Program-made: the position numbers and the translations under genes
Part shown: positions 6,834-27,423 of the stretch, piece after piece
Position numbering within the stretch: the stretch's first letter is position 1
Layout of the letters: each line of letters starts with the position of its first letter
The notes under the pieces: model-generated
The model's database searches: none
What the model saw: the letters and a program-made list of their open reading frames with translations, nothing else
What the model was told of the DNA's origin: nothing
Origin: an uncultured Chloroflexia bacterium
Lineage (GTDB): Bacteria > Chloroflexota > Anaerolineae > CG2-30-64-16
Direction of reading: 5' to 3'
Length of the DNA stretch: 64,000 bases
Assembly: GCA_963810095.1 (NCBI GenBank)
Contig: CAWEMM010000007.1
Coordinates: 32,001 to 96,000 of the forward strand

Positions 6834-8699
6834 CTACTTCTCCGCTTCGTCCCCCTCCCACAGCCTCCGCAACTCGGCGCTGGTCTGCAGGAGCTCGTCC
6901 AGCGTCCCCTGCGCCTCGATGTGGCCGTCTTGCAGGACGATGACGTGGTCGGCCCGCCGCAGCGCGGCCCGGCGGTGCGAGACGGCCAGCACCGTCGCGC
7001 CGCCGGCCTCATTCGCCAGCCGGTTCCAAAGCGCCTGCTCGGTTTCTACGTCGAGCGCGCTAGAGAGATCGTCGAAAACCAGCAGGGCCGGCCTGCGGAC
7101 GAACATGCGCGCGGCCGCCGAGCGCTGCACCTGCCCGCCCGACAGGCGGACGCCGCGCGGGCCGACGAGCGTGTCCAGCCCCTTTTCGAGCTGGGCCACG
7201 TCCGGCTCCAGCACCGCCTGGCGGACCGCGGCCGCCAGCGCATCTGGTCCCGCGTGGGCGCCTTGCATGATGTTCTCGGCCAGCGTGTCGCTGAAAAGGC
7301 GGGGCGTCTGGGGTGTATACGCGCTGACGGGCGGGCGGAAGAACCCGGCCCGGTCCACGATGCGTTCTCCGTTCCAGCACACCTCGCCCGACTGGCTCGG
7401 GAGCAGGCCGAAGATCGCGCGCAGCAGCGTGCTCTTGCCCGAACCGATCTGTCCCGTGACGACCGTGAAGCTCCCGGCCGCCATCGTGAAGCTGGCGCCG
7501 GCGATCCCCCGACCTGAGTCGCCGTGGAGCGAGGTCAGCTCGCGCACGCTCAGCTCGGCAAGCGCTTCGGCCGGCTTTGCTCTCCCTGCGGGCTCCAGGG
7601 CAACAGCTGCTGCCCGGGCCTCCAGCGCCCGCGCAAACAGCCACCCCGAGCGCTCCTGGTAGGGGAAGGCGGGGTGGTGCTCGACGATCGCGGCCGCCGG
7701 TTCACCTGGGACGAGTTCCGCGAGGCGCCCGATCGCCACTTCCTGCTGCTTGTAGTCGCCCACGAAGCTCCCGAGGTACGACGGAAGCTCGGACGTGAAC
7801 CAGAGGAAGTAGGTGAAGAGCGCGAAGTCGCCGACCGTGAAGCTGCCCGTGACCATGCCCCGGCTCGCCATCAGCAGCATGGCGCCGGTGCTAACGACTA
7901 CGGCGATGCTGTGGATCGAGTAGACGAACGTCCCCAGCATCTGCGATTGCACGGCGGTGCGCTGACGCTCGTCGTTAAGCCGTTCGAAGTGGCGCACCGC
8001 ATGTCGCTCCGCCGCGCTGCCCGCCACCTTGAGCGCCTGGACCGCGCCGAACATCTCCGACAGGAAGCCGGTGACCCGGTCGCCCGCCTCGCCTTCGAGC
8101 TTGTGATACAGCAGCATCCGGCTCCAGGCCGCCCGGCCCACCGCGTACGCGACCACGACGGGCAGGAACGCGACGAGCGTAATCTGCCAGTTGATCGTCG
8201 CCATGATCGTGATCGCAGCGACAAAAGAGACCAGGTTGCCGGCAACGTCCGGCAGCCAGGTCGGGAAGTCGCAGACTTCGCCGACGTCGTTCCGGTAGCG
8301 GTACACGGCTTCACCCGGTGCGATCGGGTGCGATAGCGCGCCGGGCCGCCGCAGCAGCGCGGCGAACAGGTTGCGCCGCACCAGCGCGCCCGCCGTTTCG
8401 CGGAAAGTCCAGCCTGCGTACGTTTCCCAGTAGGAGGAAACGACCCGTGCGAGCCCGATGCCGATGTAGGCGGCGATCAACGCCCACAGGCTGACGGTGA
8501 CCTGAGCCTGGCCCGTGATCGTGTCAAACACCGCCTTTTCCACCAGGCCCGGCAGCACGCGCGAGCCGAGGAAGAAGATCTGCAGAACGGCGTGGATGGC
8601 GAACGGCCGGGACGCATAGGCGATCAGCGCCCGGTTGAAGGCCATCACGCTCATAGTCCTGCCGGCCGGCGTCGAAACAGGCGCTGTCACATCGTTCAT
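6834..8699 (-). CDS. ABC exporter, fused permease/ATP-binding subunit
   Basis: TM domain plus Walker [14 protein letters not shown], degenerate Walker B LVFDD and SHR. Confidence 0.93.
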
Positions 8700-10502
8700 T
8701 GCAGCGCCTCCTCGAGGCCAGTGCGCAGCAGCGCGCTGAACCGCGAGCCCGGATCTGCGGCCAGCTCCGCACGCGGCCCGAATTCCACTACCCGGCCGCG
8801 CTCCAGGATCAGGATGTCGTCGGCCCGGTCGACCGTGTGCAGGCGGTGCGCGATGACGAGCGCGGTCCGCCGCGCCCCGTTGTTGCCCAGCAGTCGATCG
8901 ATGGCGCCGTCGAGCCGGCGCTCGGTGATCGGGTCAAGTCGGGACGCGGCCTCATCCAGCACCACCAGTCCCGGGTTACGCAGGAGGATACGCGCGAAGG
9001 CCAGCAGCTGAGCTTCGCCCGCCGACATTCCCGCGCCGCCCGGCGCGAGGCGGGTTGCCAGTCCATCCGGCATTGCCCGCACCCAGTCGAGGATGCCCAG
9101 GCTGGCCAGGGCCGCTTCGATGTCGGCGTCGGCAACCTCGTCGTCGAACAGCGTGATGTTGTCGCGCACGGTCGCGCCGAAAAGCTGCACGTCCTGCGTC
9201 ACCAGCCCCACCGCAGACCGGAGCGCGTCGAAGGACAGGTCGCGCAGGTCGATCCCGTCGAGCCGGATCGCGCCCGAGGCCGGGTCGTAGAGCCGGAACA
9301 GCAGCCGGGTGAGCGTGGTCTTGCCGCTGCCCGTCCGGCCTAGGATGCCCAACACCCGGCCCGGCGCCAGCGGGAAGGAGACGTCGGCCAGCACCAACTC
9401 CGCGGTCGCCGCGCCATCTTCAGCGTTGTCGGCATACCGGAAGCTCACGCGTTCGAACTCGAGGCGGAGGGGGCCGCGTCCGACTTCTAGCTTGCCTTCG
9501 TTGGGGACGGCGGGCGCCTGGGCCAGAAGGTCGCCCACGCGGTTGATGCCCGCGCTGGCCTCCTGGAACCGCTCCGCCTGCCCGCGGATTTCCTCCAGCG
9601 GCGACGACAGCATCCCGATGTACGAGACGATCAGGAAGGTTGTGCCGATGCTGACCTGGCCCTGCAGGTACAGCGCCGCGCCGATCGCCAGGCCCAGGCC
9701 ATAGCCGGCGATGAAGAGGAAGTTGGTGAGCGCGCTGCCGAGCGCGCCCGCCATCCAGCCCGCCCGCGCCTTGTGGAACACGGTCAGCGCGAGCTGGGCC
9801 AGCCGGTGCTGTGCATGGGCCTCCGCGCCGATGCCCCGGATGTCCTCCAAGCCGGAGAAACGTTCCTCGAGGAAGCCCGTTTGCGCGGCCCAAGCCACCC
9901 GCGCCACCGTCCACGCCCGCACGCCGATCCGGTTTACAAACGCCAGCGCGGCGACAACCAGCAGGACGTACACGGTGACCGCCGCTCCCGCCCGCGTTCT
10001 CGCGGTAAAGGAAGCCGAGAATGGCGACCACGAGGAGCGCGTTGCCGGCCACCCGCACAACCATCTGCCCGAAGAACTCGGCCATCGTGGTCACGTCGCC
10101 GTCGACCCGCTCGATCAGCTCGCCCGGCGTGTGCGTCTTGTGAAAGGGCATGTCTAGGCGGAGCAAGTGGCCCGCCAGGTCGCCGCGCAGCCGGTTCGTG
10201 GCGTCCCAGCCCAGATTCAGCCCGGCATACGAGCCGCCCAGGTTGACCGCGCGGCCGAGCAGGCCGACCAACAGGAACAGCAGCGCAGCGCCGGTCAGCG
10301 TGCGCATCGATTCGCCAGCGGCCCCCGGGCTGGCGGCTTGGGCCGTGTCGATGAAGATCCTAACGATCTGCGGATTGAGCAGCCGCAGGGCAATGTCGAA
10401 GCCGATCAGCGCGGCGAGCATCACGATGCGCCGGCGATGCGGTGCAAGATAACGGCCGAGCAAGCGGCGTTGAAGCGGCAAGCCGGCGAGTGGAACGTGC
10501 AT
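8696..10502 (-). CDS. ABC exporter, fused permease/ATP-binding subunit (heterodimer partner), frameshift near 9990
   Basis: N-half in ORF 9420-10502 ([13 protein letters not shown]). C-half in ORF 8696-10060 ([21 protein letters not shown]). Stop overlaps the next start. Confidence 0.88.
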
Positions 10503-12461: not shown

Positions 12462-13604
12462 TTACGTCCGTGTGGCTTCGCGCCTTCGCCGGTCTCGCTC
12501 GCGGCGCCGGTCCGAGATGGAAGTCGCGGGGCCGTTCCGCAGCACGTTGATCACTTCCGCCATAATGCAGACGGCAATCTCTGCCGGGGTTCGCGCACCG
12601 ATGGCAATGCCGATGGGCGCGTAGACCCGGTCCAGCTTTTCCGCGGCGATGCCCATCTCCTCCGTCAGCAGTTGGAATACGGCGTCGACCCGGCGCTGCG
12701 AGCCGATCATGCCGATATACCCGACCGGACGGTCCAGCACCTCGAGCAGGCATTCGACGTCGTGGCTGTGGCCGCGCGTCACGAGGATAATGTACGTGTC
12801 CTGGTCCATGGGGAGGCCGGCGACGGTCTCACGCAGCGGGCCGGCGATGCGTTTGGCGGCGGTGGGGAAGCGTTCCTCGCTGACAAAGCCCGGCCGGTCG
12901 TCGAGCACGCTGACTGCGAAATCGCACATGCTGGCCAGTTGTGCCAGGGGCAGGGCAATGTGGCCACCCCCGACGATCAGCAGCTCCGGCGCGCGGCGTT
13001 GCACCTCCACAAACACGCTGAAGTCGTCGTACTTGAGCAGCTTGTGCTGCCGGCCCCGCAGAACCGTGCGCGCGTCTTCGACCACCTGCGGCTCGCGCTC
13101 GCCCAGCGCCAGCACGCCGAGCGGCGCGCGGTCGAGCCAGATGACTGCCTGCTGACCGGCATGCTCGCCGCGCACGACCGTCGCGAGCGCCACCGGCACC
13201 CGGTTTTGCATGGACTCGCGCAGCGCATCCAAGAAACCGGGTCCTGCCGGCCGGTTGGGTTCCGCGGGGACGACCGGTGGGTTAAGATCCGCGGGTGCGG
13301 CTCGCTCGATGAAGACGTCCATAATGCCGCCACAAACGCCGAGCGCCTGCATGGTGATGTCTTCCGTCAGGTCGACATGCACCGTGGCAGGTTCCCCCGT
13401 CTGGAGCACGTCGAGGGCGGTGCGGATGACGTCCCCTTCGCCGCAGCCCCCACCCACCGTGCCGACGTGCTTGCCGAGCGGGTGAATGAGCATCTTCGCC
13501 CCTACCTCCCGCGGCACAGAGCCCCGGACGTCGATGATCGTGGCAACTGCGACGGTGTCGCCTGCCGCCAGCAGCCTCGCTAACTCAGCGTAAATGTTCT
13601 CCAT
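12462..13604 (-). CDS. xdhC: XdhC/CoxI family Mo-hydroxylase maturation factor
   Basis: GSVPREVGAKM, GTVGGGCGE, CGG, GGGHIA, TRGHSHD, YIGMIGS and APIG..IGARTPAEIA. Confidence 0.92.
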   Translation of the reverse strand: MENIYAELARLLAAGDTVAVATIIDVRGSVPREVGAKMLIHPLGKHVGTVGGGCGEGDVIRTALDVLQTGEPATVHVDLTEDITMQALGVCGGIMDVFIERAAPADLNPPVVPAEPNRPAGPGFLDALRESMQNRVPVALATVVRGEHAGQQAVIWLDRAPLGVLALGEREPQVVEDARTVLRGRQHKLLKYDDFSVFVEVQRRAPELLIVGGGHIALPLAQLASMCDFAVSVLDDRPGFVSEERFPTAAKRIAGPLRETVAGLPMDQDTYIILVTRGHSHDVECLLEVLDRPVGYIGMIGSQRRVDAVFQLLTEEMGIAAEKLDRVYAPIGIAIGARTPAEIAVCIMAEVINVLRNGPATSISDRRRERDRRRREATRT

Positions 13605-15258
13605 GCGGTAGTTCCTTCACCCCAGCAATTGCATTGGCTTCGACCTCGGCCAAAGCCGCAGCCGCCGCGTCGACGGCCGTGTCGAGCGGTGCGATCCATT
13701 TCTCGCCGCCCATGCCACCCCGCTCCCGGCGTTTGAACTCCGCGCCCCCGGCTTGCAGCGAACGTTTGCCCAGTGTAATGCGAAGCGGCAGCCCGATCAA
13801 GTCCGCATCCGTGAACTTGACGCCCGCACTCTCGCTCCGATCGTCCAGCAGGCAGGGCATGCCGGCCGCCCACAATCCCCGGTACAGCGCCTCCACTTCG
13901 CTTTCCGCGCCAGGCATGCTGACCAGGTGGACGGCAAACGGTGCGGCGGCGGGGGGCAGGGCCATCCCGCCCTCGTCAGACCGCCCCGCCGCAATGGCGG
14001 CTAACAACGCGCCCAGGTCGAAGCAGTGCGCCGACATCTGCACCGGCTGGGCGCGGCCCGTGGTGTCGAGGAACTGCGGGCCGCCTTTTTCGTGGCCCGC
14101 GGCGGCCGACCGGCCCAGCAGGGCCATCCGGACGGACCGCAAGGCGTCACTGCAAACCGGGCAGCCATCGCCGGGCTCGGCCGCCGCGATGTCGGCCACC
14201 AGGCTGGCCCGGTAGTCGCGGCCGACGTTGGTGTTGAGCAGGTGGTAACCCTCTTCGTTCGCGCCCGCGACGAGGTTGGGCGACCGGGCGGCCAGCTGAT
14301 CCACGACGACGAGGACGTTCCGCAGCCCGACCGGCGAGGCGTAGCCCGGCGTTGCGCCGGTGGCCCGGATCTCGGCTTCCGTCGCCGGGCGGAGCGTGCC
14401 CGCGCGTACTTCCAGCCGCCGCAGCGCGGCCCGCAGCTTGTGCTCGCTGACGCCGGTATCGCCTCGGACGACTGCGAAGACAAAGCGCTCGCCTTCCTCT
14501 GCCGCGGCCACCAGGAAGACAGCCTTTGCCGTCCGGGACTCGGGCACCCCGAGCAACCGGGCGAGGTCCGCGATCGTGCTGGTGTGGGGCGTGGCGATCT
14601 TCTCCAGCGGCAGCAGGTCTTCGGGCGGGCCGGGGAGCCGGCCGGACGCCGCCGCGGCTGCGAGCGCGACATAGCCGCAGCCGTCGCAGACCAGCGCCGT
14701 CTCGATCCCATCGTCCGAAGGGTAGAGGTAGGCGTGACTGGCCGCGGCCGCGGTTTGGTCACGAACGAGCATGACCGCGAGCCCGCACCGGACGCAGAGG
14801 TCGAGGAAGGCGCGCTGCTGTGCGGCATACGCGGCTTCGGCGGGCGCGGCGCCGGCATCCAGGTGCAGCACAAAGCACGCGGGGGCTTCCCGGGCGTTCA
14901 GCGGGCCCCCGCGGCTCTGGCTCAGCGCATGGCGCCACACGTTCCGACCCGCACCGCGCACGGGCAGGTGGCGGTACGACTGGACATCGGAGGCGGCCAG
15001 CGTGCGGGTGAGGGCCAGCAGGTCCGCCGTGTCCTCGAACGGAGGGCACTCCAAGTCGCACCGGCCGGCCTCGCCCTGCGCCGGGGCCAGCTCGGCCGCG
15101 AGCCGCGCGACGGCGCGCTGCCCCGCAGGCAGGTACGCGTACTTATTGGCTCCCAGGTCGCGCACGTAACCCGCGCGCTGCAGCAGCCGGTAGCCCGCGC
15201 CTTCCGCATCAGAGGGTGGTTCCCGGAGGGTGCGTCCGAATAGCTGTGTCATCCGCAT
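13585..15258 (-). CDS. Prolyl-tRNA synthetase paralog with degenerate catalytic core and intact INS (YbaK-like) editing and anticodon-binding domains
   Basis: ProRS N-terminus (QLFGRTLRE), SYRHLP, TAKAVF..VRGD..GYASP..GAN..YH and DDR..SAGVKFTDADLIGLP. Motifs 2 and 3 are eroded. Confidence 0.85.
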   Translation of the reverse strand: MRMTQLFGRTLREPPSDAEGAGYRLLQRAGYVRDLGANKYAYLPAGQRAVARLAAELAPAQGEAGRCDLECPPFEDTADLLALTRTLAASDVQSYRHLPVRGAGRNVWRHALSQSRGGPLNAREAPACFVLHLDAGAAPAEAAYAAQQRAFLDLCVRCGLAVMLVRDQTAAAASHAYLYPSDDGIETALVCDGCGYVALAAAAASGRLPGPPEDLLPLEKIATPHTSTIADLARLLGVPESRTAKAVFLVAAAEEGERFVFAVVRGDTGVSEHKLRAALRRLEVRAGTLRPATEAEIRATGATPGYASPVGLRNVLVVVDQLAARSPNLVAGANEEGYHLLNTNVGRDYRASLVADIAAAEPGDGCPVCSDALRSVRMALLGRSAAAGHEKGGPQFLDTTGRAQPVQMSAHCFDLGALLAAIAAGRSDEGGMALPPAAAPFAVHLVSMPGAESEVEALYRGLWAAGMPCLLDDRSESAGVKFTDADLIGLPLRITLGKRSLQAGGAEFKRRERGGMGGEKWIAPLDTAVDAAAAALAEVEANAIAGVKELPHGEHLR

Positions 15259-15296
15259 GCGTTGTTCGCTCCTGCCAGGTCTGCTGAGAACGCTGG

Positions 15297-15917
15297 CTAG
15301 GCACTCGCCCGCGCGTAATCGTCCGGCGTGTCGAGGTCTGCCAAAATTGTCGGCGTATCCAGCGTTAAGTAATCAATGGAATTCGTCGCGCTTCGTAAGG
15401 CGGTCCGTAAGCTTTCTGTTGCATTCATTATTTGCATATAGAAATAACTTGGGATTAGAATGGGGTGACCAGCGCGCATCCGGTAGCTCGGTATGATCAC
15501 TCGTTGCCAGCCGGTGCGCTCCCCCTCTCTCAGGACAGCGCTGAGCGTGGCCGCCTCCATTTGCGGCTGATCGCCCAGGCACACGAGGACCGCATCGCTG
15601 CCGGCATCCAGTGCGGCAATGCCGGTTTGGATCGAGCTCAGCATCTCGCCGGTGGCGTAGTTGGGGTTGAACACGCAGCGCACGGACTGGCCCGCGAGGG
15701 CCTGCTCCACGTCAGCAGCGCGGTGGCCCGTCACTGCGATGACTTCGCGTAGCCGGGCAGCCGCCAGTGTGTTTACGATTTGTCCGATCACCGTCGTCTC
15801 GCGCCAGGGCAGCGTCAACTTGAAGGCACCCATCCGCCGCGAAAGTCCCGCGGCAAGAACGATTGCCGACACTCGCAGATCGGTCGAGCCGGATGACCGT
15901 ATTTCGTGTGTATTCAC
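15297..15917 (-). CDS. mocA: Molybdenum cofactor cytidylyltransferase (MocA/YgfJ family); start may be the GTG near 15872
   Basis: LAAGLSRRMG..K, NPNY..GEMLSSI, LGDQP, GHP and DLDTPDDY. Confidence 0.88.
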   Translation of the reverse strand: MNTHEIRSSGSTDLRVSAIVLAAGLSRRMGAFKLTLPWRETTVIGQIVNTLAAARLREVIAVTGHRAADVEQALAGQSVRCVFNPNYATGEMLSSIQTGIAALDAGSDAVLVCLGDQPQMEAATLSAVLREGERTGWQRVIIPSYRMRAGHPILIPSYFYMQIMNATESLRTALRSATNSIDYLTLDTPTILADLDTPDDYARASA

Positions 15918-19603: not shown

Positions 19604-20581
19604 TTACTGCATCTTCGCCGGAATTGGCTGCACGCCCTGCGCGACCGGGAAGTGAACCATGACCGACATGTCGGTCTGGCCGAGCATCGGCACGAACGTC
19701 TTGATCAGGTCCAGGTACTGCTTCGGCACGCCCGGGTTCATCTGCTCATAGACCTGGATCGCGTTGTTCAGCGCCTTGCTGTCCCAGGCGATCGCCGGCA
19801 GTGGGTTCCCGTTGACGTACAGATAGAGTCCGTTCGACCGGCTGCTGAGCTGGATGTGCTGCACGTTGTTCGTCTGAAGTTGGGCCATGACGTTCGGGTC
19901 GAGCGCGACATTCGCATTGATGCCCAGTGCCTGCAGGTCGCGAGCCGAGATGCCCAGAATCGAGGGCACGCCCTGGTCATCGTACTTGACCTCGAACTTG
20001 GCCACGGCCGACGGCGGCTGGCTTGCAGGTGCGAGCGAGGCGATCTTGAGGTCGGCCGGCGCGTAGTCAATCTGCTGCGCCCCGTCCTGAGTCGGGAACT
20101 TCACCGCGATCGACAGCCCAAGGCGCTGGGCAAGCGGGGCCAGCTTCTCGACGAGGCCGCCGATGGCAGGGCCGTTCTGGCCGAGCAGCGGTGCGATCTC
20201 GCCGATGCGCTGCAGCGACCCATCCTGGAATGACAGGCTCGGCATCAGCGCCCCATTGACCAACAGCGCAAGCCCATCGCCGGTCTGCCGCAGTTCGATG
20301 TGCTGGATGTTGGCCGCCTTCATCCAGGCGGGATAAAAGGGATCGATCCGGTATTGGCTGAGGTCCAGCGGAACGCCCAAACCACGGGCTATCTCCTCAA
20401 GGGCCACACCCTCGACCCCGGGGTTGCCCTGATCGTCGAACGTGATGACGATGCGCGGCAGAGCCACGACGAATGTCTCGCCCGATTCGGTCTGGGGTGC
20501 AGCCGCCGGCATGACCGCGGGTCCGCACGACGTGAGCACCAGGCCAGCAAGAACCAGGACGACCAGCACGAACCTACGCAT
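19604..20581 (-). CDS. Hypothetical lipoprotein with an internal two-fold repeat (paralog B)
   Basis: Lipobox LTSC, AGGAGG RBS, similar to 20700-21671. Confidence 0.85.
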   Translation of the reverse strand: MRRFVLVVLVLAGLVLTSCGPAVMPAAAPQTESGETFVVALPRIVITFDDQGNPGVEGVALEEIARGLGVPLDLSQYRIDPFYPAWMKAANIQHIELRQTGDGLALLVNGALMPSLSFQDGSLQRIGEIAPLLGQNGPAIGGLVEKLAPLAQRLGLSIAVKFPTQDGAQQIDYAPADLKIASLAPASQPPSAVAKFEVKYDDQGVPSILGISARDLQALGINANVALDPNVMAQLQTNNVQHIQLSSRSNGLYLYVNGNPLPAIAWDSKALNNAIQVYEQMNPGVPKQYLDLIKTFVPMLGQTDMSVMVHFPVAQGVQPIPAKMQ

Positions 20582-20699
20582 TACGCACCTCCTACAGTGA
20601 GCGTTTCGTACATCAGATCAGTTTTCCCGCCGGCGTAGATCAGAGTCCTCTGATTTACACCCGGCCAGGGACGTGATCGGCAATCAGCGGCCAGAGGGT

Positions 20700-21671
20700 C
20701 TAGTGCAGCTCGGCCGGGATATCGGCTTTGTCGGCCGCCTTCGGGAACCGCAGCAGGATTCCCAGGTCGGTCCGGTCCAGGTAGGGCGCCAGCTGTTGAA
20801 TCAGCGGCAGAAGCTGCGCATCCGGCGAGAGCTTGCCATAGAGCTCCATCGCGTTTGCGAGCAGCTGCGTATCCCAAATCAGCCTCGGCAGGGGCTCGTT
20901 GTTAACGTAGACGTAGGCGCCATCCGGTTTGGTACGGATCTCCATATTTTGGATATTGCCATTTTTGAAGTTGGCGAGGGTCTCGGGTGAGAGCTTGACG
21001 AGGCTGCCCATGCCCAGGGCGTCCAGGTCGTCCGGCGAAAGCGTCATCATGCCCGCCCGGCCCTGCTCGTCGAAGCGCACCTCGAACTTGGCCACTGCGG
21101 AAGGGGGAGCAGTCGTGACGGTCGGCTGGAAGCTGCGAACCGTGCCGGTGTCCACGAAGGGAATCTCCGCCTCGCCCGCGGCCCGGGGGAAGCGCAGGAC
21201 CACGTCGAGCCCCAGCCGGGTGATCAGGGGCAGAATGCGCTGGATCGCTTCGGCGTTCTCCACCTTGAGCGTACTGAGCAGGCCCAGCATCCGAGTCATG
21301 GAGTCTTGGCTCCAGCCGAGATGGGGCAGGGGTTTCCCATTGGCAAAGAACATCAGGCGGTCGCCCACCGAGGTGATCTCGAGGTGTTGCACACCCGCCT
21401 TAGTGAATTGGTCGACAAGCTCTTGCGGCAGCTTAAAGCCGGCAACGTCGACCCCGACCGCGCTCAGGAGGGCGGGGGAAATGCCGAGGATGCTGGGATT
21501 ACCCGCGGCATCGACGTCTACCACGAGGCGTGGCAGCGCGATCTGAAAGAGCTCGCCGCTCGACGTCGTCGGACCCGTCGTCGGCTGCGCGGCTTGCCCT
21601 CCGCAGCCGGCCAAGATCACCGCAAGGACCACCACGGAGACCCAAAGTCTTTGCCTCATCGCGCACCTCAT
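20700..21671 (-). CDS. Hypothetical lipoprotein with an internal two-fold repeat (paralog A); start may be 21659
   Basis: Lipobox LAGC; shares SGExFxxALPR, PPSAVAKFEV and YVNxxPLP with its neighbour. Confidence 0.85.
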   Translation of the reverse strand: MRCAMRQRLWVSVVVLAVILAGCGGQAAQPTTGPTTSSGELFQIALPRLVVDVDAAGNPSILGISPALLSAVGVDVAGFKLPQELVDQFTKAGVQHLEITSVGDRLMFFANGKPLPHLGWSQDSMTRMLGLLSTLKVENAEAIQRILPLITRLGLDVVLRFPRAAGEAEIPFVDTGTVRSFQPTVTTAPPSAVAKFEVRFDEQGRAGMMTLSPDDLDALGMGSLVKLSPETLANFKNGNIQNMEIRTKPDGAYVYVNNEPLPRLIWDTQLLANAMELYGKLSPDAQLLPLIQQLAPYLDRTDLGILLRFPKAADKADIPAELH

Positions 21672-21921: not shown

Positions 21922-24279
21922 CTATGGGAGCTGCTGCAATGCTTCCCATATCTTCTGAGACGTAAGCGGCATCGAATCGATACGGATGCCGGCCGCATTG
22001 TAGACCGCATTCGCAATCGCGGGGGCGGTCGGCACCATCGGGTGCTCCCCGACGCCGCGGGCCCCGAAGGGACCGTCGTCCTGCGGCACCTCAACGATGA
22101 TGTTCTCCGTTTCCAGCGGCGCATCGACGGCAGTCGCGATGCGATAGTCGGTGAAGTTCGGGTTGCGGGGCCGGCCGTGATCCAGGACGAGGCTTTCCAG
22201 CAGTGCAGTGCTCATGCCTTGCACCGCGCCACCTTCCATCTGCGTGCGCACCATCTCCGGGTTGATCGCCTTGCCGACGTCGTATGCGGAGACGATCTTG
22301 AGCACCTGGATTTCGCCCGTCTCCGTGTCGATCTCCAGTTCCACTGCCTGGCAGCCGGTCGTGAAGTGGACCACTGCCCGCGGGCCCTGCCCCGTCTCGG
22401 AATCGAGCGGGGTGACGTAGTCGGGCATGAAGCGGCCCTGCGCGACCACCGGTCCGCCGACGAAGGTGCCGTCCTTGCGCTGCACGCCGTAGATGGCGAT
22501 GTCCTTCAGCGGCACCGACTCCTCGGACTTGTAGCTGATCACGGTGCCGTCGATGATATCCAGGTCCTGGATGTCCTCGCCCCACGCCTGCGCGACTGCC
22601 GACAGCACCTGGGTGCGGGCGGTTTCGGCGGCTTGCAGCACCGCGTTGCCCATGCTCCACGTCAGGCGCGAGGCCACCGTCTGCCATTCGTAGGGGCTGT
22701 AGTCGGTGTCGACCGTGTTGACCCGCACGTCGGTCACCTTGATACCGAGTCCCTCGGCCGCGAACTGGGCCATCGCGGTCAGTGCGCCCTGGCCGATGTC
22801 CACGCCGCCGATGCTGACCGTCGCCGTGCCGTCCTCGTTCAGCCGCACGAGCGCGCTCGAGCCGGGGTTGGGGGGCATCGCAGGCGCCTTCCACATGGCC
22901 GCCAGCCCCTTCCCGCGCACCTTGTGCGGCCCCGAGGGGGAGCACGGCTCGCCCCACTTGATCGCATCCGCCGCCTTGCGGATGCACTGGCTGAGGCCGG
23001 TCGGGTGCATCTTCATGCCGGTCAGCGTCTCGTCGCCGTCCTTCAGGCAGTTTTTGAGCCGCACCTCCACCGGGTCGAGCCCCAGCTTGTGGGCCATCTG
23101 GTCGATGTGCTGCTCGATGCCGAAGTGGATTTCCGGCATGCCGAACCCACGCATGGCGCCGCCCACGGGATGGTTGGTATAGACGCAGAAGCTGTCGACG
23201 TGGATGTTGGGGACGAAGTAGGGGCCCGTGCCCGAGTAGCCGGCCGCCCGGCTGATGTTCACCCCGTACTCGGTGCTGGCGCCGCCGTCCCAGTAGAAGG
23301 TGTTCTGCATGGCCGTGATGCGGCCGTCCTTCGTCATGCCCATCTTGATCTTCGCGATCAGGCCCTGGCGCACGAAGGTCGTGTAGAACTCCTCCTCGCG
23401 GGTCATGCGCAGCTTGACCGGCCGGCCCTTCGCGTGGATGGCCAGCGCGACGGCTGCGCCCTCCATGCTCACGCCTGCCTTCGAGCCGAATCCACCACCA
23501 ACGTGCGGCGTAATGACCCGCAGCCGCGAGTGGTTGATGTGGAGCGCCTTGGCGATCAGGTTCCGCTGGGCAAAGGGCGACTGGCTGGAGGACCAGAGCG
23601 TGATCTTGCCGTTCATGTCCTGCTGGGCCACGCACACATGCGTCTCGAGCGGTACGTGCTGGATGTGCGGCACTTTGTACGTGTGCTCGTACACCACGCC
23701 GCCGTCTGCGGCAGCTTCGGCCCAGCCCTGCTCCATGTCGCCCTTGCGCACCTTCATCCAGTTCGAGATGTTCGTGCCCGGCTGCGGGAAGACGAATGGG
23801 ACGCTCTCATACGATCCGAGATCGGGGTGGATCAGGGGCGCTTCGGGCGAGGCGCCATACTCCGGGTCGAACACGCCGGGCAGTTCCTCGTACTCGACCT
23901 CGATCAGATCCAGCGCAGCCTCGGCGATCTCCGGCGTATCTGCTGCGACTGCTGCAACGGCCTCGCCGAAGTGGCGCACTCGATCCAGCGCGAAGATGCG
24001 CCGGTCCTTAAGGTACAAGCCCGAGAAACCGGGGAAGTCCTCGCCGCACACGACGACCCGGACGCCCGGCAGCGCCCGGGCCTTGCTGACGTCGATGCGC
24101 TTGATGAGACCGTGCGGAATCGGGCTGCGCTTCAGTGCGCCCCACAGGAGGTTCGGCCCGAACTGCATATCGTCGACGTACGTGGCCGCGCCGGTCACCT
24201 TGTCGCGGCCTTCGATCCGCTGCGGGCTGGCGCCGACTGCGTGCGTTTTCTGCCTGGTTGGAGGGGGTGTCGTGGTCAT
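21922..24279 (-). CDS. Xanthine dehydrogenase family molybdopterin-binding subunit
   Basis: KVTG.A.Y.DD, SQSP, GGGFGSK, AMRGFG, GQG, DVGKAINP..QMEGG and GARGVGE. Start MTTTP overlaps the upstream stop. Confidence 0.95.
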   Translation of the reverse strand: MTTTPPPTRQKTHAVGASPQRIEGRDKVTGAATYVDDMQFGPNLLWGALKRSPIPHGLIKRIDVSKARALPGVRVVVCGEDFPGFSGLYLKDRRIFALDRVRHFGEAVAAVAADTPEIAEAALDLIEVEYEELPGVFDPEYGASPEAPLIHPDLGSYESVPFVFPQPGTNISNWMKVRKGDMEQGWAEAAADGGVVYEHTYKVPHIQHVPLETHVCVAQQDMNGKITLWSSSQSPFAQRNLIAKALHINHSRLRVITPHVGGGFGSKAGVSMEGAAVALAIHAKGRPVKLRMTREEEFYTTFVRQGLIAKIKMGMTKDGRITAMQNTFYWDGGASTEYGVNISRAAGYSGTGPYFVPNIHVDSFCVYTNHPVGGAMRGFGMPEIHFGIEQHIDQMAHKLGLDPVEVRLKNCLKDGDETLTGMKMHPTGLSQCIRKAADAIKWGEPCSPSGPHKVRGKGLAAMWKAPAMPPNPGSSALVRLNEDGTATVSIGGVDIGQGALTAMAQFAAEGLGIKVTDVRVNTVDTDYSPYEWQTVASRLTWSMGNAVLQAAETARTQVLSAVAQAWGEDIQDLDIIDGTVISYKSEESVPLKDIAIYGVQRKDGTFVGGPVVAQGRFMPDYVTPLDSETGQGPRAVVHFTTGCQAVELEIDTETGEIQVLKIVSAYDVGKAINPEMVRTQMEGGAVQGMSTALLESLVLDHGRPRNPNFTDYRIATAVDAPLETENIIVEVPQDDGPFGARGVGEHPMVPTAPAIANAVYNAAGIRIDSMPLTSQKIWEALQQLP

Positions 24280-24767
24280 GCGATCGCCTCCCGGCGGGTC
24301 TCGGCGCTGCGCCGAGCCGCCATCTTGATCGCATCGATGATGCGCATGTAGCCCGTGCAGCGGCACAGATTGCCGACCAGCGCCTCACGGATCTGTTCAT
24401 CGGTCGGGTTCGGGTTCCGGTCGAGCAGCGCGCGGGCATTTACGAGGATGCCCGGCGTGCAGAAGCCGCATTGGGTCGCGCCTGTGGCGACAAAGGCTTC
24501 CTGGAGCGGATCGAGCTGCTGGTCTGTGGCGAGACCTTCGATCGTCGTGATGGCTGCGCCGTTTGCTTCGGGTGCAAGGACCATGCACGAGTTGACCGGC
24601 TCGCCGTTCAGCAGTACGGCGCATGCGCCGCACTCGCCCGCTTCACAGCCGTTCTTGGTGCCGGTCAGGACGAGCTGCTCGCGCAGCACGCGCAGCAGTG
24701 TATAGTGGGACGGCACTTCAAGGTCGTAGGGTTCGCCGTTGACGGTGAACTGGATGCGATGTTTCAT
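24276..24767 (-). CDS. Xanthine dehydrogenase family [2Fe-2S] subunit
   Basis: GCEAGECGAC, QCGFCTPG and NLCRCTGY. Confidence 0.96.
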   Translation of the reverse strand: MKHRIQFTVNGEPYDLEVPSHYTLLRVLREQLVLTGTKNGCEAGECGACAVLLNGEPVNSCMVLAPEANGAAITTIEGLATDQQLDPLQEAFVATGATQCGFCTPGILVNARALLDRNPNPTDEQIREALVGNLCRCTGYMRIIDAIKMAARRSAETRREAIA

Positions 24768-25660
24768 GCTGCTCCTCCAGCCGCGGGAGGAGCGCTGGGA
24801 ACCGAAAGCGCCGCCAGGATGCTCTCGATGCCGCGGCGGGCCAGTACCCGGACCATGGCCTTGCGATAGGCCGCGCTGCCGCGAATGTCGTCGATCGGCC
24901 GCGCGGCCCCCGATGCCAGCTCGGCCGCCCGGGCCACGCCTGCCGGCGTGTTATCCTGCGCGAGGGCCGTTTCGGCTTCTAATGCCCGCAGGGGGGTGGG
25001 ACCGGCTGCGCCGATGGCGAGCCGCCAGGCAAGGCTGCCGTCGCGTGCCTCGCAGTTGACGGCCACGCTGACGACGGCGATATCGCCGATCTTGGTGCGG
25101 CCGAGCTTGTTGTATGAGCCGGCCGAGCGAACGCCCTCGTGTGGGGGCAAGTGGATGGCCGTCAGGAATTCGCCCTTCTGCATGGCCGTGCGGCCGGGGC
25201 CGGTGAAGAACGCGCCCATGGGGATGCGCCGAGCGCCGCCTGCACCGAAGACCTCGGCCACCGCATCCAGGCAGAGGAGCGCGGGTGCGGTGTCGGCGGC
25301 GGGGCTGGCGTTGCAGCAGTTGCCGCCGATGGTGGCCCGGTTGCGCAGTTGGTACGAGGCCACGGAATTCGCGGCTTGCGCCAGGACGTCGTACCGTTCG
25401 CAGATCACCGGGTGTGTGCCGACCTGGTTCATCGTGCAGGCCGCGCCGACGACGAGCCAGCCATCCGGGCTGAGCTTGATTTCGCGCATGCCGGGCAGGC
25501 CCTTCAGGTCGACGACGCGTTCTGGCTTGACGAATCCGCCCCGAATGCGAATCAAAAGGTCCGTGCCGCCCTGAAGCGCGCGCACGGACCCGATGCCAGC
25601 AGCAAGATATTCGCTGGCCTCCTGGTAATCCCTGGGGATGACGTAGTCAAATGGTTGCAA
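24764..25660 (-). CDS. Xanthine dehydrogenase family FAD-binding subunit
   Basis: GGTDL, RNRATIGGN..NASPAAD and PIDDIRGSAAYR. Confidence 0.95.
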   Translation of the reverse strand: MQPFDYVIPRDYQEASEYLAAGIGSVRALQGGTDLLIRIRGGFVKPERVVDLKGLPGMREIKLSPDGWLVVGAACTMNQVGTHPVICERYDVLAQAANSVASYQLRNRATIGGNCCNASPAADTAPALLCLDAVAEVFGAGGARRIPMGAFFTGPGRTAMQKGEFLTAIHLPPHEGVRSAGSYNKLGRTKIGDIAVVSVAVNCEARDGSLAWRLAIGAAGPTPLRALEAETALAQDNTPAGVARAAELASGAARPIDDIRGSAAYRKAMVRVLARRGIESILAALSVPSAPPAAGGAA

Positions 25661-25680
25661 CGTTGCTCACCTCGTGATGC

Positions 25681-25731
25681 CATGTGACAGGGTCACCCCG
25701 CCGCCGGGCGGCCGGGCGACCCTGTCACATG
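25681..25731. terminator. Strong hairpin between the permease and the XDH genes
   Basis: CATGTGACAGGGTC / GACCCTGTCACATG 14-bp perfect stem. Confidence 0.5.
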
Positions 25732-25737
25732 AAAGTA

Positions 25738-27210
25738 CTAGAAGTCCAGGTTCGCCCGCTCCTTCACGCCGAACTTCGATGGCGGCAGGATGGTGAAGAT
25801 CAGGTTCAAGAAGATGCCCACGATCGCCGAGAAAACGATGGCAGGGATGCCGTTCGGGAAGAGCACGGCGATCTTGAACGGGAACAGGCCGTTGGGCATG
25901 CCCAGGCTGCCGCCAATGCCCAGCACCAGGATCACGGCGCCGATGGCGAGGTTGCGCGGCTCGAACAGGTTCACCCGCTCGCTCTGCAGCAGCGCAACAC
26001 CCTGCATGCCGATGACGCCGAACAGGTAGATCGACAGGCCGCCGACCACTGGCACCGGAACCGTGCCGATCAGCGCCGCGAGTGTGCCGATAAAGGCCAG
26101 CAGCATGGCCATCACGCCCGCGGCCATCAGCACGGGTACGGAGTAGTTGCGGGTAATTGCCATGAGCGAGTTGTTCTCGCCGTAGTTGGTGCCCGCCGAG
26201 CCGCCGAGGAGGCCGGCCACGACATCATCCGTGCCGTCGGCCACGAGGTTGACGCCGATCAGGTTCTTGATCTCCTTCGGCTTCCGGCCCAAATCCTTCG
26301 CCAGCTGGTCGATATAGAGGCTCATCTGGTAGAGATGGGCGGTCGATTCGGGAATGGTGGCGATGCAGATCAGTGCGATGCTGAAGACGACGGCCCAGGC
26401 GTTCGGGTTCGCGAAGTCGGGTAAGGTAAAGGGCGGTACTCGGAAAAGTTGAGCCGCCGTGACGTCGGCAAAGTACTTGACGTAACCGAGTTTCTCTGCG
26501 GGCGGGGGGCCAAACTGGATCAAGCCAAAGGGGATCGCGGCGATGTAGCCGACGACCGCACCCAGCAGGATGGGCAGCATGCCGAGCAGGCCCCGGCCCT
26601 GCAGGTAGACCGAGAAGATGATGGTAGCCAGCAGCGTAATGCCCGCCACGGCCCACGCTCGCCACTGGAAGTCGGCCGGCGCGCCGACGGCGATCCCGCC
26701 CGCCTCGCTGATCGCGGTACCCGCGAGCGCGATACCGATGACGATGGCGACGCTGCCCGTGATGATGGGGGGCAGCACCTTGTCAAGCGCCGCCTTGCCG
26801 ATCCGGACGATCATCAGGCCGAGCAGGATTTCGATGACCGCGGTGCCCAGGATGCCGACCTGCGCGATACGAACGCCGTCGCGGCAGTAGGTCGTCAGCG
26901 GGTCGCTGAAACAGCCGCCGGCATAGGTTGCCATAACGGTAATAATGACCGCGATGTAGCTGAAGCTGGAGCCGTAATAGAGCGGGATGCGGCGCCGTGT
27001 CACCAGGAGGGCAATGATGGTGCCCAGGCCACTGGTGAACAGCGTCACGCCGACATCGAACTTGGTAAGGATGGCAACCAGGACGGTTGCGGGAAACATC
27101 GTCAGCACCTGCTGGAAGCCGAGGCTCAGCATGGCGCCGACCGGGGGCATGTCCTCCGGCAGGTAGCCGAGGATCTTACCCTCTTCGGTGGGGACGGACT
27201 TCACGGCCAT
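25738..27210 (-). CDS. NCS2 nucleobase:cation symporter (uracil/xanthine permease family)
   Basis: GSSFSY, LPPIITG, ESTAH and the NAT motif TNYGENN. Start MAVKS follows AAGGAG. Confidence 0.93.
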   Translation of the reverse strand: MAVKSVPTEEGKILGYLPEDMPPVGAMLSLGFQQVLTMFPATVLVAILTKFDVGVTLFTSGLGTIIALLVTRRRIPLYYGSSFSYIAVIITVMATYAGGCFSDPLTTYCRDGVRIAQVGILGTAVIEILLGLMIVRIGKAALDKVLPPIITGSVAIVIGIALAGTAISEAGGIAVGAPADFQWRAWAVAGITLLATIIFSVYLQGRGLLGMLPILLGAVVGYIAAIPFGLIQFGPPPAEKLGYVKYFADVTAAQLFRVPPFTLPDFANPNAWAVVFSIALICIATIPESTAHLYQMSLYIDQLAKDLGRKPKEIKNLIGVNLVADGTDDVVAGLLGGSAGTNYGENNSLMAITRNYSVPVLMAAGVMAMLLAFIGTLAALIGTVPVPVVGGLSIYLFGVIGMQGVALLQSERVNLFEPRNLAIGAVILVLGIGGSLGMPNGLFPFKIAVLFPNGIPAIVFSAIVGIFLNLIFTILPPSKFGVKERANLDF

Positions 27211-27423
27211 GATAACGTTCTCCTTTGAGATTAGGATGGGCTGGGCAAAAAAGGAAACGATCGACCGTCTTGATATCCGGGGCGCGTACCTCCAAAAGGC
27301 AAAGCGCACACACCTCCTTCTGGGCCGCATTTTAGCACAGCGACCACTGCGCTACACGACGCGAAACCTACGCTTACATAACGTCGAACCCACGCCGGTG
27401 CAGCATCTGGGCGAAGCGGGGTT

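Follow-up and report, generated by a model that had tools for sequence, protein, structure and literature searches.

The window, a stretch of 64,000 nucleotides from an uncultured Chloroflexia bacterium (contig CAWEMM010000007.1, positions 32,001 to 96,000), encodes a protein of 557 amino acids, P0001, that is derived from a prolyl-tRNA synthetase (ProRS). The gene is probably the descendant of a bacterial-type ProRS containing the INS editing domain, which is no longer able to charge tRNA or to activate proline and would now act as an anticodon-guided deacylase that edits Ala-tRNAPro in trans. This reading is preferred because selection has kept the INS domain, the anticodon-binding domain (ABD) and a folded scaffold connecting them, but not the active site. 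The need for editing in trans would arise because the archaeal-type ProRS encoded elsewhere in the same genome has no editing domain.

The charging site of P0001 is eroded beyond recognition. The protein was aligned with the ProRS of E. faecalis (2j3l), S. aureus and P. aeruginosa and, in a separate alignment of 33 sequences, with ten canonical Chloroflexota ProRS, and it is homologous to the E. faecalis enzyme over the full length (E 3.6e-55). About 30 residues, the proline-binding TxE loop included, are gone at the L80/L81 junction (near 15018/15019), where canonical ProRS reads W..TGRW...G.EM.RF.D...RDMVLAMTHEE. Motif 2 reads VWRHA...NAREA versus the canonical TKWRDD...RVREF, with loss of the REF Phe; a loop in this remnant, R116-G-G118-P-L, is conserved within the eroded family. 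The EVGNIFQLGTRY block (EVGNIF.LGTRY) of canonical ProRS is absent, and motif 3 reads SAHCFDLGALL versus GSYGIGxGRLL, with loss of the Arg. P0001 does not match the Pfam class II core model PF00587 (tRNA-synt_2b), which does match a canonical control, P0034. Its scores against the whole-protein models of bacterial ProRS, 249.9 bits for the NCBIfam equivalog NF006625 (cut-off 558) and 182.9 bits for TIGR00409 (cut-off 306.7), place it outside both. Judged by motif 2, motif 3 and the TxE loop, P0001 does not have an intact class II catalytic core.

The editing and anticodon-binding parts, in contrast, are well preserved. Pfam finds only tRNA_edit (PF04073, residues 223-344) and HGTP_anticodon (PF03129, residues 451-514) in P0001, and the domain score for the former, 82.3 bits against a cut-off of 25.5, places the domain in the INS/YbaK superfamily. 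The INS signatures TAK245AVF, G305-Y-A-S-P309 and GAN..G-Y-H339 do not vary among the 33 aligned sequences, and neither do the ABD residues D472, D473, R474, G479, K481, F482, D484-L487, P491 and R493. Lys245 (codon at 14524-14526) aligns with the Lys of the E. faecalis, S. aureus and P. aeruginosa enzymes, which we take to be K279 of E. coli. Genes that combine the deletion with eroded motifs, as the window gene does, are referred to below as class A. Counted over the columns that are invariant in the ten canonical Chloroflexota ProRS, class A retains 53/65 in INS and 28/32 in the ABD, and 30/120 and 11/38 in the N- and C-terminal catalytic parts. P0001 has an INS domain and a class IIa ABD in the arrangement and predicted fold of a ProRS.

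An AlphaFold2 model built from the alignment (pLDDT 90.3, pTM 0.88) predicts with confidence that P0001 keeps the full ProRS fold in spite of its eroded charging site. The best Foldseek matches of the model in the PDB are the E. faecalis ProRS structures 2j3l and 2j3m (TM 0.77-0.78). A separate feature of the sequence is two CxxC pairs, C191/C194 and C366/C369 (window about 14152-14687), which do not vary among the eroded and canonical Chloroflexota ProRS of the 33-sequence alignment and could make up a structural zinc site beside the INS insertion.

The original prediction had described P0001 as a pseudo-ProRS that lacks the proline-binding segment, with motif 2 reduced to WRHA/REA, motif 3 reduced to SAHCFDLGA without its Arg, and a well-conserved INS domain and ABD. 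It had also reported an uninterrupted frame that overlaps the start of the downstream xdhC gene by 20 bp. The alignments and Pfam matches bear out each of these features, and the frame is open throughout, with the overlap at 13585-13604. The per-domain analysis of selection that had been proposed as a check revealed no neutral decay.

Selection was measured as the ratio of nonsynonymous to synonymous substitution rates (dN/dS; Nei-Gojobori, per domain) among the window gene, three genomes of the same genus and five metagenome loci, the last retrieved with a DNA pattern from the 3' end of the gene; dS between close class A pairs was 0.38-0.83. The class A gene is under purifying selection along its whole length, since dN/dS is 0.14-0.22 overall (0.09-0.19 in active ProRS of sister genera) and low in every region. 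In INS it is 0.09-0.14 for class A and 0.10-0.29 for the active enzymes, in the ABD 0.07-0.16 and 0.04-0.26, and in the C-terminal catalytic part 0.09-0.22 and 0.08-0.23. The N-terminal catalytic part gave 0.18-0.30 versus 0.04-0.16. INS and the ABD are therefore as constrained as in active ProRS, and relaxation, about two- to three-fold, is confined to the N-terminal catalytic part. For comparison, the neighbouring xdhC and mocA genes gave 0.08-0.20 and 0.14-0.42.

The genome to which the window belongs (6.13 Mb, 88.5% complete) has a second ProRS. A profile search found no bacterial-type ProRS over the cut-off in it; contig C10, however, encodes at 162484-163908 an archaeal/Thermus-type ProRS that scores 571 bits against TIGR00408 (cut-off 437), which answers the earlier question of whether another proS exists in the genome. 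Its domains are tRNA-synt_2b (the class II core), HGTP_anticodon and ProRS-C_1, and Pfam finds no tRNA_edit domain. Judged by this domain content, the working synthetase of the genome is of the archaeal type and has no editing domain. P0001 matches it in the ABD only, at 35% identity. The genome has three tRNAPro genes, with anticodons CGG, GGG and UGG, all standard and all with C1:G72 and A73; no tRNA gene was found in the window. The 51 tRNA genes reported by ARAGORN for the genome include one with a four-letter anticodon, 'taaa' (type '???'), and one tRNA-SeC.

Erosion of this kind is widespread among relatives. Among the 120 best protein matches, 32 lack PF00587 in the precomputed domain assignments (the query, P0004-P0033 at 55-75% identity, and P0102); the remainder are canonical Chloroflexota ProRS at 41-48% identity. 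The source databases label the eroded genes 'proline--tRNA ligase' or 'prolyl-tRNA synthetase'. The order was sampled with 37 species genomes (one family, 17 genera), of which 32 have an archaeal-type ProRS over the cut-off; a bacterial-type ProRS exceeds the cut-off in 16, and a further 15 have one at 480 to 207 bits. Inspection of the motifs revealed three states. Besides canonical genes there is class A, found in the window, in G019, G021, G025 and G022 (the last read in three frames) and in metagenome proteins, and there is a class B, in which the deletion is absent and the motif 3 Arg is kept while TxE, motif 2 and the EVGN block are lost. Class B occurs in ten genomes of eight genera and has the INS signatures GAEPGYGSP and GANRPGYHT. 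Nine of its ten loci (L030-L038, in G012, G011, G031, G014, G024, G010, G009, G013 and G006) lie directly downstream of a DUF5656 gene, and the tenth is a fragment.

In a wider sample of 81 genomes of the class, the bacterial-type ProRS is over the cut-off in 40, below it in 28 and missing in 13; the genomes are mutually related, so these counts are descriptive, overstate independence and carry no statistical test. Where the archaeal-type enzyme is absent (19 genomes), an intact bacterial ProRS is present in 15, a sub-cut-off copy in two, both of them fragmented assemblies, and none in two. Where it is present (62 genomes), the corresponding numbers are 25, 26 and 11. This tally, in which 26 of the 28 genomes with an eroded copy also have the archaeal-type enzyme, shows that erosion is almost confined to genomes with another ProRS able to charge. 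Twenty sub-cut-off genes were fetched for a motif check from the 27 other genomes with such matches. All 20 keep the INS T-x-K, G..G[YF].SP and GAN...H signatures and the ABD motif, and none has the full set of catalytic signatures.

The erosion goes further in places. In a phylum sample of 121 genomes (including G139, which is flagged unpublished), one family of the same class (f37) has proteins of 400-500 amino acids in 8/8 genomes, with only INS and the ABD detectable. The minimal form at L178 (G072:C66), of this size, has tRNA_edit and HGTP_anticodon as its only Pfam domains, and most of the catalytic core is gone. Eroded forms are also present in one family outside the class. A scan of genome contigs with a pattern from P0001 returned 80 loci, nearly all of them canonical ProRS from Anaerolineae and other phyla and dominated by GANEEGYH; these were used for outgroups and context only.

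Trees of 65 ProRS and ProRS-like sequences, from which the fragmentary L038, L039 and L042 were left out, group class A and class B with P0102 in a single clade, with SH-aLRT support of 99 for all columns and 94 for the INS and ABD columns only. In both trees this clade is sister to the family's canonical ProRS of the mocA context. This tentatively suggests a single loss of charging with later divergence, from trees that are quick searches with long stems and a grouping at odds with the genus labels.

Elsewhere in the class, several families have an intact proS of the bacterial type next to, or a few kb from, one of the archaeal type on the same strand (G054:C814:7977-11306; G100:C87:3-3040; G062:C30:6601-10527; G076:C427:2981-7401; G106:C36:37080-43291). 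The closeness of these pairs suggests that the two synthetases may often be co-expressed.

A mechanism can be proposed on this basis. The archaeal-type ProRS, having no editing domain, would now and then release Ala-tRNAPro. The dead paralog would capture the released tRNA through its ABD, reading G35/G36, while the remnant of the catalytic core would serve as a rigid scaffold and probably also as a dimer and acceptor-arm platform. INS, with Lys245 and His339, would then hydrolyse the alanyl ester in trans, and the paralog would have been retained because its editing and anticodon-binding domains still cooperate. Published work on complete ProRS is consistent with such a division of labour. 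According to the part of PMC3973320 that was available, INS has no intrinsic tRNA recognition and relies on the ProRS ABD reading G35/G36 about 70 Å away, K279A ProRS loses post-transfer editing, and organisms whose ProRS lacks INS depend on a trans-editing factor. A complete ProRS is also able to edit mischarged tRNA in trans after its release (PMC4787780, available in part). Editing in trans was among the roles named in the original prediction, and the comparative evidence (selection on INS and the ABD, a second ProRS without editing, and the phyletic coupling of the two) favours it over the others. A broader version, in which proline charging and proofreading are divided between two proteins across the class, with an imported archaeal-type ProRS doing the charging and the bacterial ProRS stripped stepwise, possibly repeatedly, to an obligatory anticodon-guided proofreading subunit, perhaps complexed with the charging enzyme, is speculative and unlikely to hold as a whole.

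Several observations weigh against a trans-editing role. Three free-standing genes of the YbaK superfamily are present in the genome itself, one of them apparently frameshifted. Of the two intact ones, the first has a weak likeness to ProXp-ala (5vxb, E 2e-7) and the second is similar to TTHA1699 of T. thermophilus (E 4e-17), and these could already edit mischarged tRNAPro. A tRNA_edit match is present in 37/37 genomes of the order, most of which have matches outside ProRS. A ProRS-like gene of the bacterial type is missing altogether from some relatives, for instance G029, which is 99% complete, and in the class sample from 11/62 genomes with the archaeal-type enzyme; the function is therefore dispensable, or auxiliary. 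Finally, the eroded catalytic part is still constrained (dN/dS about 0.2), which a scaffold role or a second function would explain. The apparently frameshifted gene, outside the window at G000:C7:380535-380865, is YbaK-like (Cys-tRNAPro deacylase-like) and is matched in two frames. Complementarity between the eroded gene and free-standing YbaK/ProX genes was looked for in the order and not seen, every genome having a tRNA_edit match.

The strongest competitor to trans-editing is that P0001 binds tRNAPro without being a stand-alone deacylase, by docking on the archaeal-type ProRS, as YbaK does on ProRS in a ternary complex, by sequestering or sensing tRNAPro, or in a role like that of HisZ. 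We consider this possible but unlikely. The continued constraint on the catalytic-core remnant (dN/dS 0.18-0.30 in its N-terminal part) and the conservation of the R116-G-G118-P-L part of the motif 2 loop would suit a partner or regulator. YbaK obtains its specificity from a complex with ProRS (PMC3973320, in the part available), and duplicated subunits of threonyl-tRNA synthetase (ThrRS) heterodimerise to give editing in trans (PMC4787780, likewise in part). A pure binder, however, would have no need of the INS catalytic residues, which are the most strictly conserved of all. The original prediction had also offered a heterodimer with the true ProRS; this appears less natural than was assumed, because the true ProRS is of the distantly related archaeal type; P0001 matches it in the ABD alone. 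For a repurposed regulator, the third role offered, no evidence was found, and no adjacent regulatory target recurs in the 20 contexts examined. That P0001 might still transfer aminoacyl groups, as a highly divergent ProRS or as an amino acid ligase for another acceptor, is very improbable. In its favour, the model gives a confident class II core fold and P0001 has the Arg of motif 2 'WRHA', but members of the family may have R, Q, L, K or S at that position. P0001 has lost the TxE loop, the EVGN/H block, the REF Phe and the motif 3 Arg, its catalytic parts have few canonical-invariant columns left, and related families have most of the core deleted. We give next to no weight to a decaying pseudogene that is still open by chance, a reading for which one could cite the close relatives that have no copy and the copy of G022, a genome of the same genus (L039, G022:C35:47427-49099), read in three frames. 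The three frames probably reflect assembly indels, because the adjacent mocA is also split. Decay is contradicted by the low dN/dS of class A at the dS values given above, by intact open frames in 30 homologous proteins at 55-72% identity, by three complete frames among the five metagenome loci (L134 and L135 end at contig ends) and by the confident fold prediction.

An acquired role in molybdoenzyme maturation has been considered from the position of the gene between mocA and xdhC (Table 1), to which the original prediction had drawn attention. The position itself was confirmed. Such a role would fit the 20-nucleotide overlap with xdhC, the order mocA, ProRS-like gene, xdhC, which is kept in all class A loci with flanks (own locus, L015-L017, L039, L132, L133 and L136), and a xanthine dehydrogenase (XDH)-type molybdoenzyme cluster with a permease at 21922-27330, 6-12 kb from the gene. 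We nevertheless regard it as having only a slim chance of being right. A catalytically intact ProRS occupies the same slot in 10/15 loci of sister genera, and in G024 and G029 mocA directly adjoins xdhC with no gene between. The class B copies lie behind the DUF5656 gene. The mocA/xdhC context is absent from all of the roughly 75 ProRS loci outside the family, and mocA or xdhC is nearby in 0/20 of the eroded genes from other families of the class, whose contexts are unrelated. Because active ProRS genes of sister genera occupy the same slot, the mocA/xdhC setting is an inherited synteny of the family and gives no clue to the function of the eroded form.

Table 1. Coordinates, in the window, of the ProRS-derived gene, its parts and its two neighbours
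Feature	Position	Strand	Basis or remark
ProRS-derived gene (P0001, 557 amino acids), class A eroded bacterial-type ProRS paralog	13585..15258	-	Open reading frame and translation
N-terminal class II catalytic remnant (residues 1-205)	14644..15258	-	Alignments, column counts, dN/dS
Motif 2 remnant (residues 102-125, GAGRNVWRHALSQSRGGPLNAREA)	14884..14955	-	Alignments, column counts
INS editing domain (residues 206-362)	14173..14643	-	Pfam PF04073 E 4e-23, alignment, dN/dS
C-terminal catalytic remnant (residues 363-432)	13963..14172	-	Alignments; 11/38 canonical-invariant columns
Motif 3 remnant MSAHCFDLGALLA, without Arg	13999-14037	-	Alignments
ABD (residues 433-515)	13714..13962	-	Pfam PF03129 E 1e-11, columns, dN/dS
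C-terminal helix and tail (residues 516-557 and stop)	13585..13713	-	Last 20 nucleotides overlap xdhC start
xdhC-family molybdoenzyme maturation factor, downstream neighbour	12462..13604	-	Pfam XdhC_CoxI, XdhC_C; NCBIfam XdhC_rel_AOR E 2e-83
mocA-like molybdenum cofactor cytidylyltransferase, upstream neighbour, 38-nucleotide gap	15297..15917	-	Pfam NTP_transf_3; matur_MocA_YgfJ E 3e-43, below cut-off

The ProRS-like gene starts with MRMTQLFGRTLRE, as in canonical ProRS, and has AGGAG 11 nucleotides upstream. At its other end the overlap DNA, ...AAGGAACTACCGCATGGAGAACATTTACGCTGA, contains ATG GAG AAC ATT TAC GC, which encodes MENIYA of XdhC (xdhC start ATGGAGAACATYTACGC), and the Shine-Dalgarno sequence of xdhC lies within the tail of the ProRS-like gene. 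From this arrangement xdhC is predicted to be translationally coupled to the ProRS-like gene. The sequencing runs listed for 12462-15917 comprised only DNA runs, which shared a small fraction of its words, and no RNA run. The tail peptide ELPYGEHLR was considered as a family-specific motif and rejected, since the same DNA, in a different frame, supplies the Shine-Dalgarno sequence and start codon of xdhC (13585-13620). The conservation of ELP[YH]GE[HY]LR follows from the overlap with the ribosome-binding site and start of xdhC; gene overlap has here produced an apparent protein motif.

Two other loci in the window were recorded. Open reading frames of 325 and 323 amino acids at 19604-21671 (-), between the XDH-type cluster and a phosphofructokinase gene, have no Pfam match. 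An ABC exporter at 8696-10502 (-) is split over two overlapping frames, 9420-10502 with the N-terminal ABC_membrane and 8696-10060 with the C-terminal ABC_membrane and ABC_tran; the split may be a frameshift or an assembly indel.

A search of open-access PubMed Central and bioRxiv, with subscription-only literature outside its scope, found no published description of a catalytically dead full-length ProRS paralog. To our knowledge, the only proteins known to edit mischarged tRNAPro in trans are small, free-standing INS-like domains. If the trans-editing reading is correct, a full-length synthetase fossil with INS and the ABD would be to ProRS what ThrRS-ed is to archaeal ThrRS, and it would be the first tRNAPro trans-editor expected to choose its tRNA through the anticodon. 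Genes of this type are common in the class, with 28/81 of the sampled genomes carrying one. Since the databases call the eroded genes proline--tRNA ligase or synthetase, inferences about metabolism or completeness in which they pass for proS are wrong. The graded erosion, closely linked to a second ProRS, is a clean natural case of subfunctionalisation that follows synthetase redundancy. The series from intact through eroded full-length to 400-amino-acid INS and ABD proteins would, if the broader version above holds, be a ready-made map of the requirements for editing by a synthetase scaffold.

Known systems resemble P0001 in different respects. With the bacterial, P-type ProRS (E. faecalis 2J3L/2J3M) it shares the domain order, the predicted fold, the INS catalytic residues and the ABD motifs; it differs in its unrecognisable class II active site, in a score below half the NF006625 cut-off and in its co-existence with a working ProRS of the other type. 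ProXp-ala (C. crescentus, 5VXB; PMC3973320, available in part, and PMC10164551) belongs to the same superfamily, PF04073, and has the same proposed substrate and role where ProRS is without INS. It is, however, a single domain of about 160-170 amino acids that reads the acceptor stem (C1:G72/A73), whereas P0001 is a multi-domain protein that keeps the ProRS ABD and falls outside this type. By analogy with INS acting in cis (PMC3973320, in part), P0001 should select tRNAPro by the anticodon. ProRSx of Streptomyces, HisZ and PoxA (PMC9437257, available in part) are, like P0001, synthetase duplicates in new or narrower use. ProRSx has catalytic activity and a special tRNA as its partner (same source, in part), whereas the window here has no tRNA gene and the tRNAPro set is standard. 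In the part available, this 2022 review of synthetase duplicates has ProRSx as the only table entry under ProRS.

The closest precedent in logic appears to be the ThrRS-cat/ThrRS-ed pair, a likeness that would be one of logic and not of descent. The ThrRS-ed paralog keeps a degenerate catalytic domain together with an anticodon-binding domain. In the crenarchaeal pair, as in the arrangement proposed here, a charging gene without editing is combined with a synthetase-derived editing gene that acts in trans (PMC3592468, available in part). As that logic demands, the genome encodes elsewhere a catalytic synthetase for proline that has no editing domain, the archaeal-type ProRS of contig C10. P0001 shows no homology to ThrRS-ed, all its sequence and fold matches being to ProRS. 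The two systems also differ in the synthetase family, in the editing fold (the archaeal ThrRS editing domain there, INS/YbaK here) and in the hosts, which here are bacteria. Finally, the two ProRS genes are distinct ProRS lineages and not halves of one ancestor.

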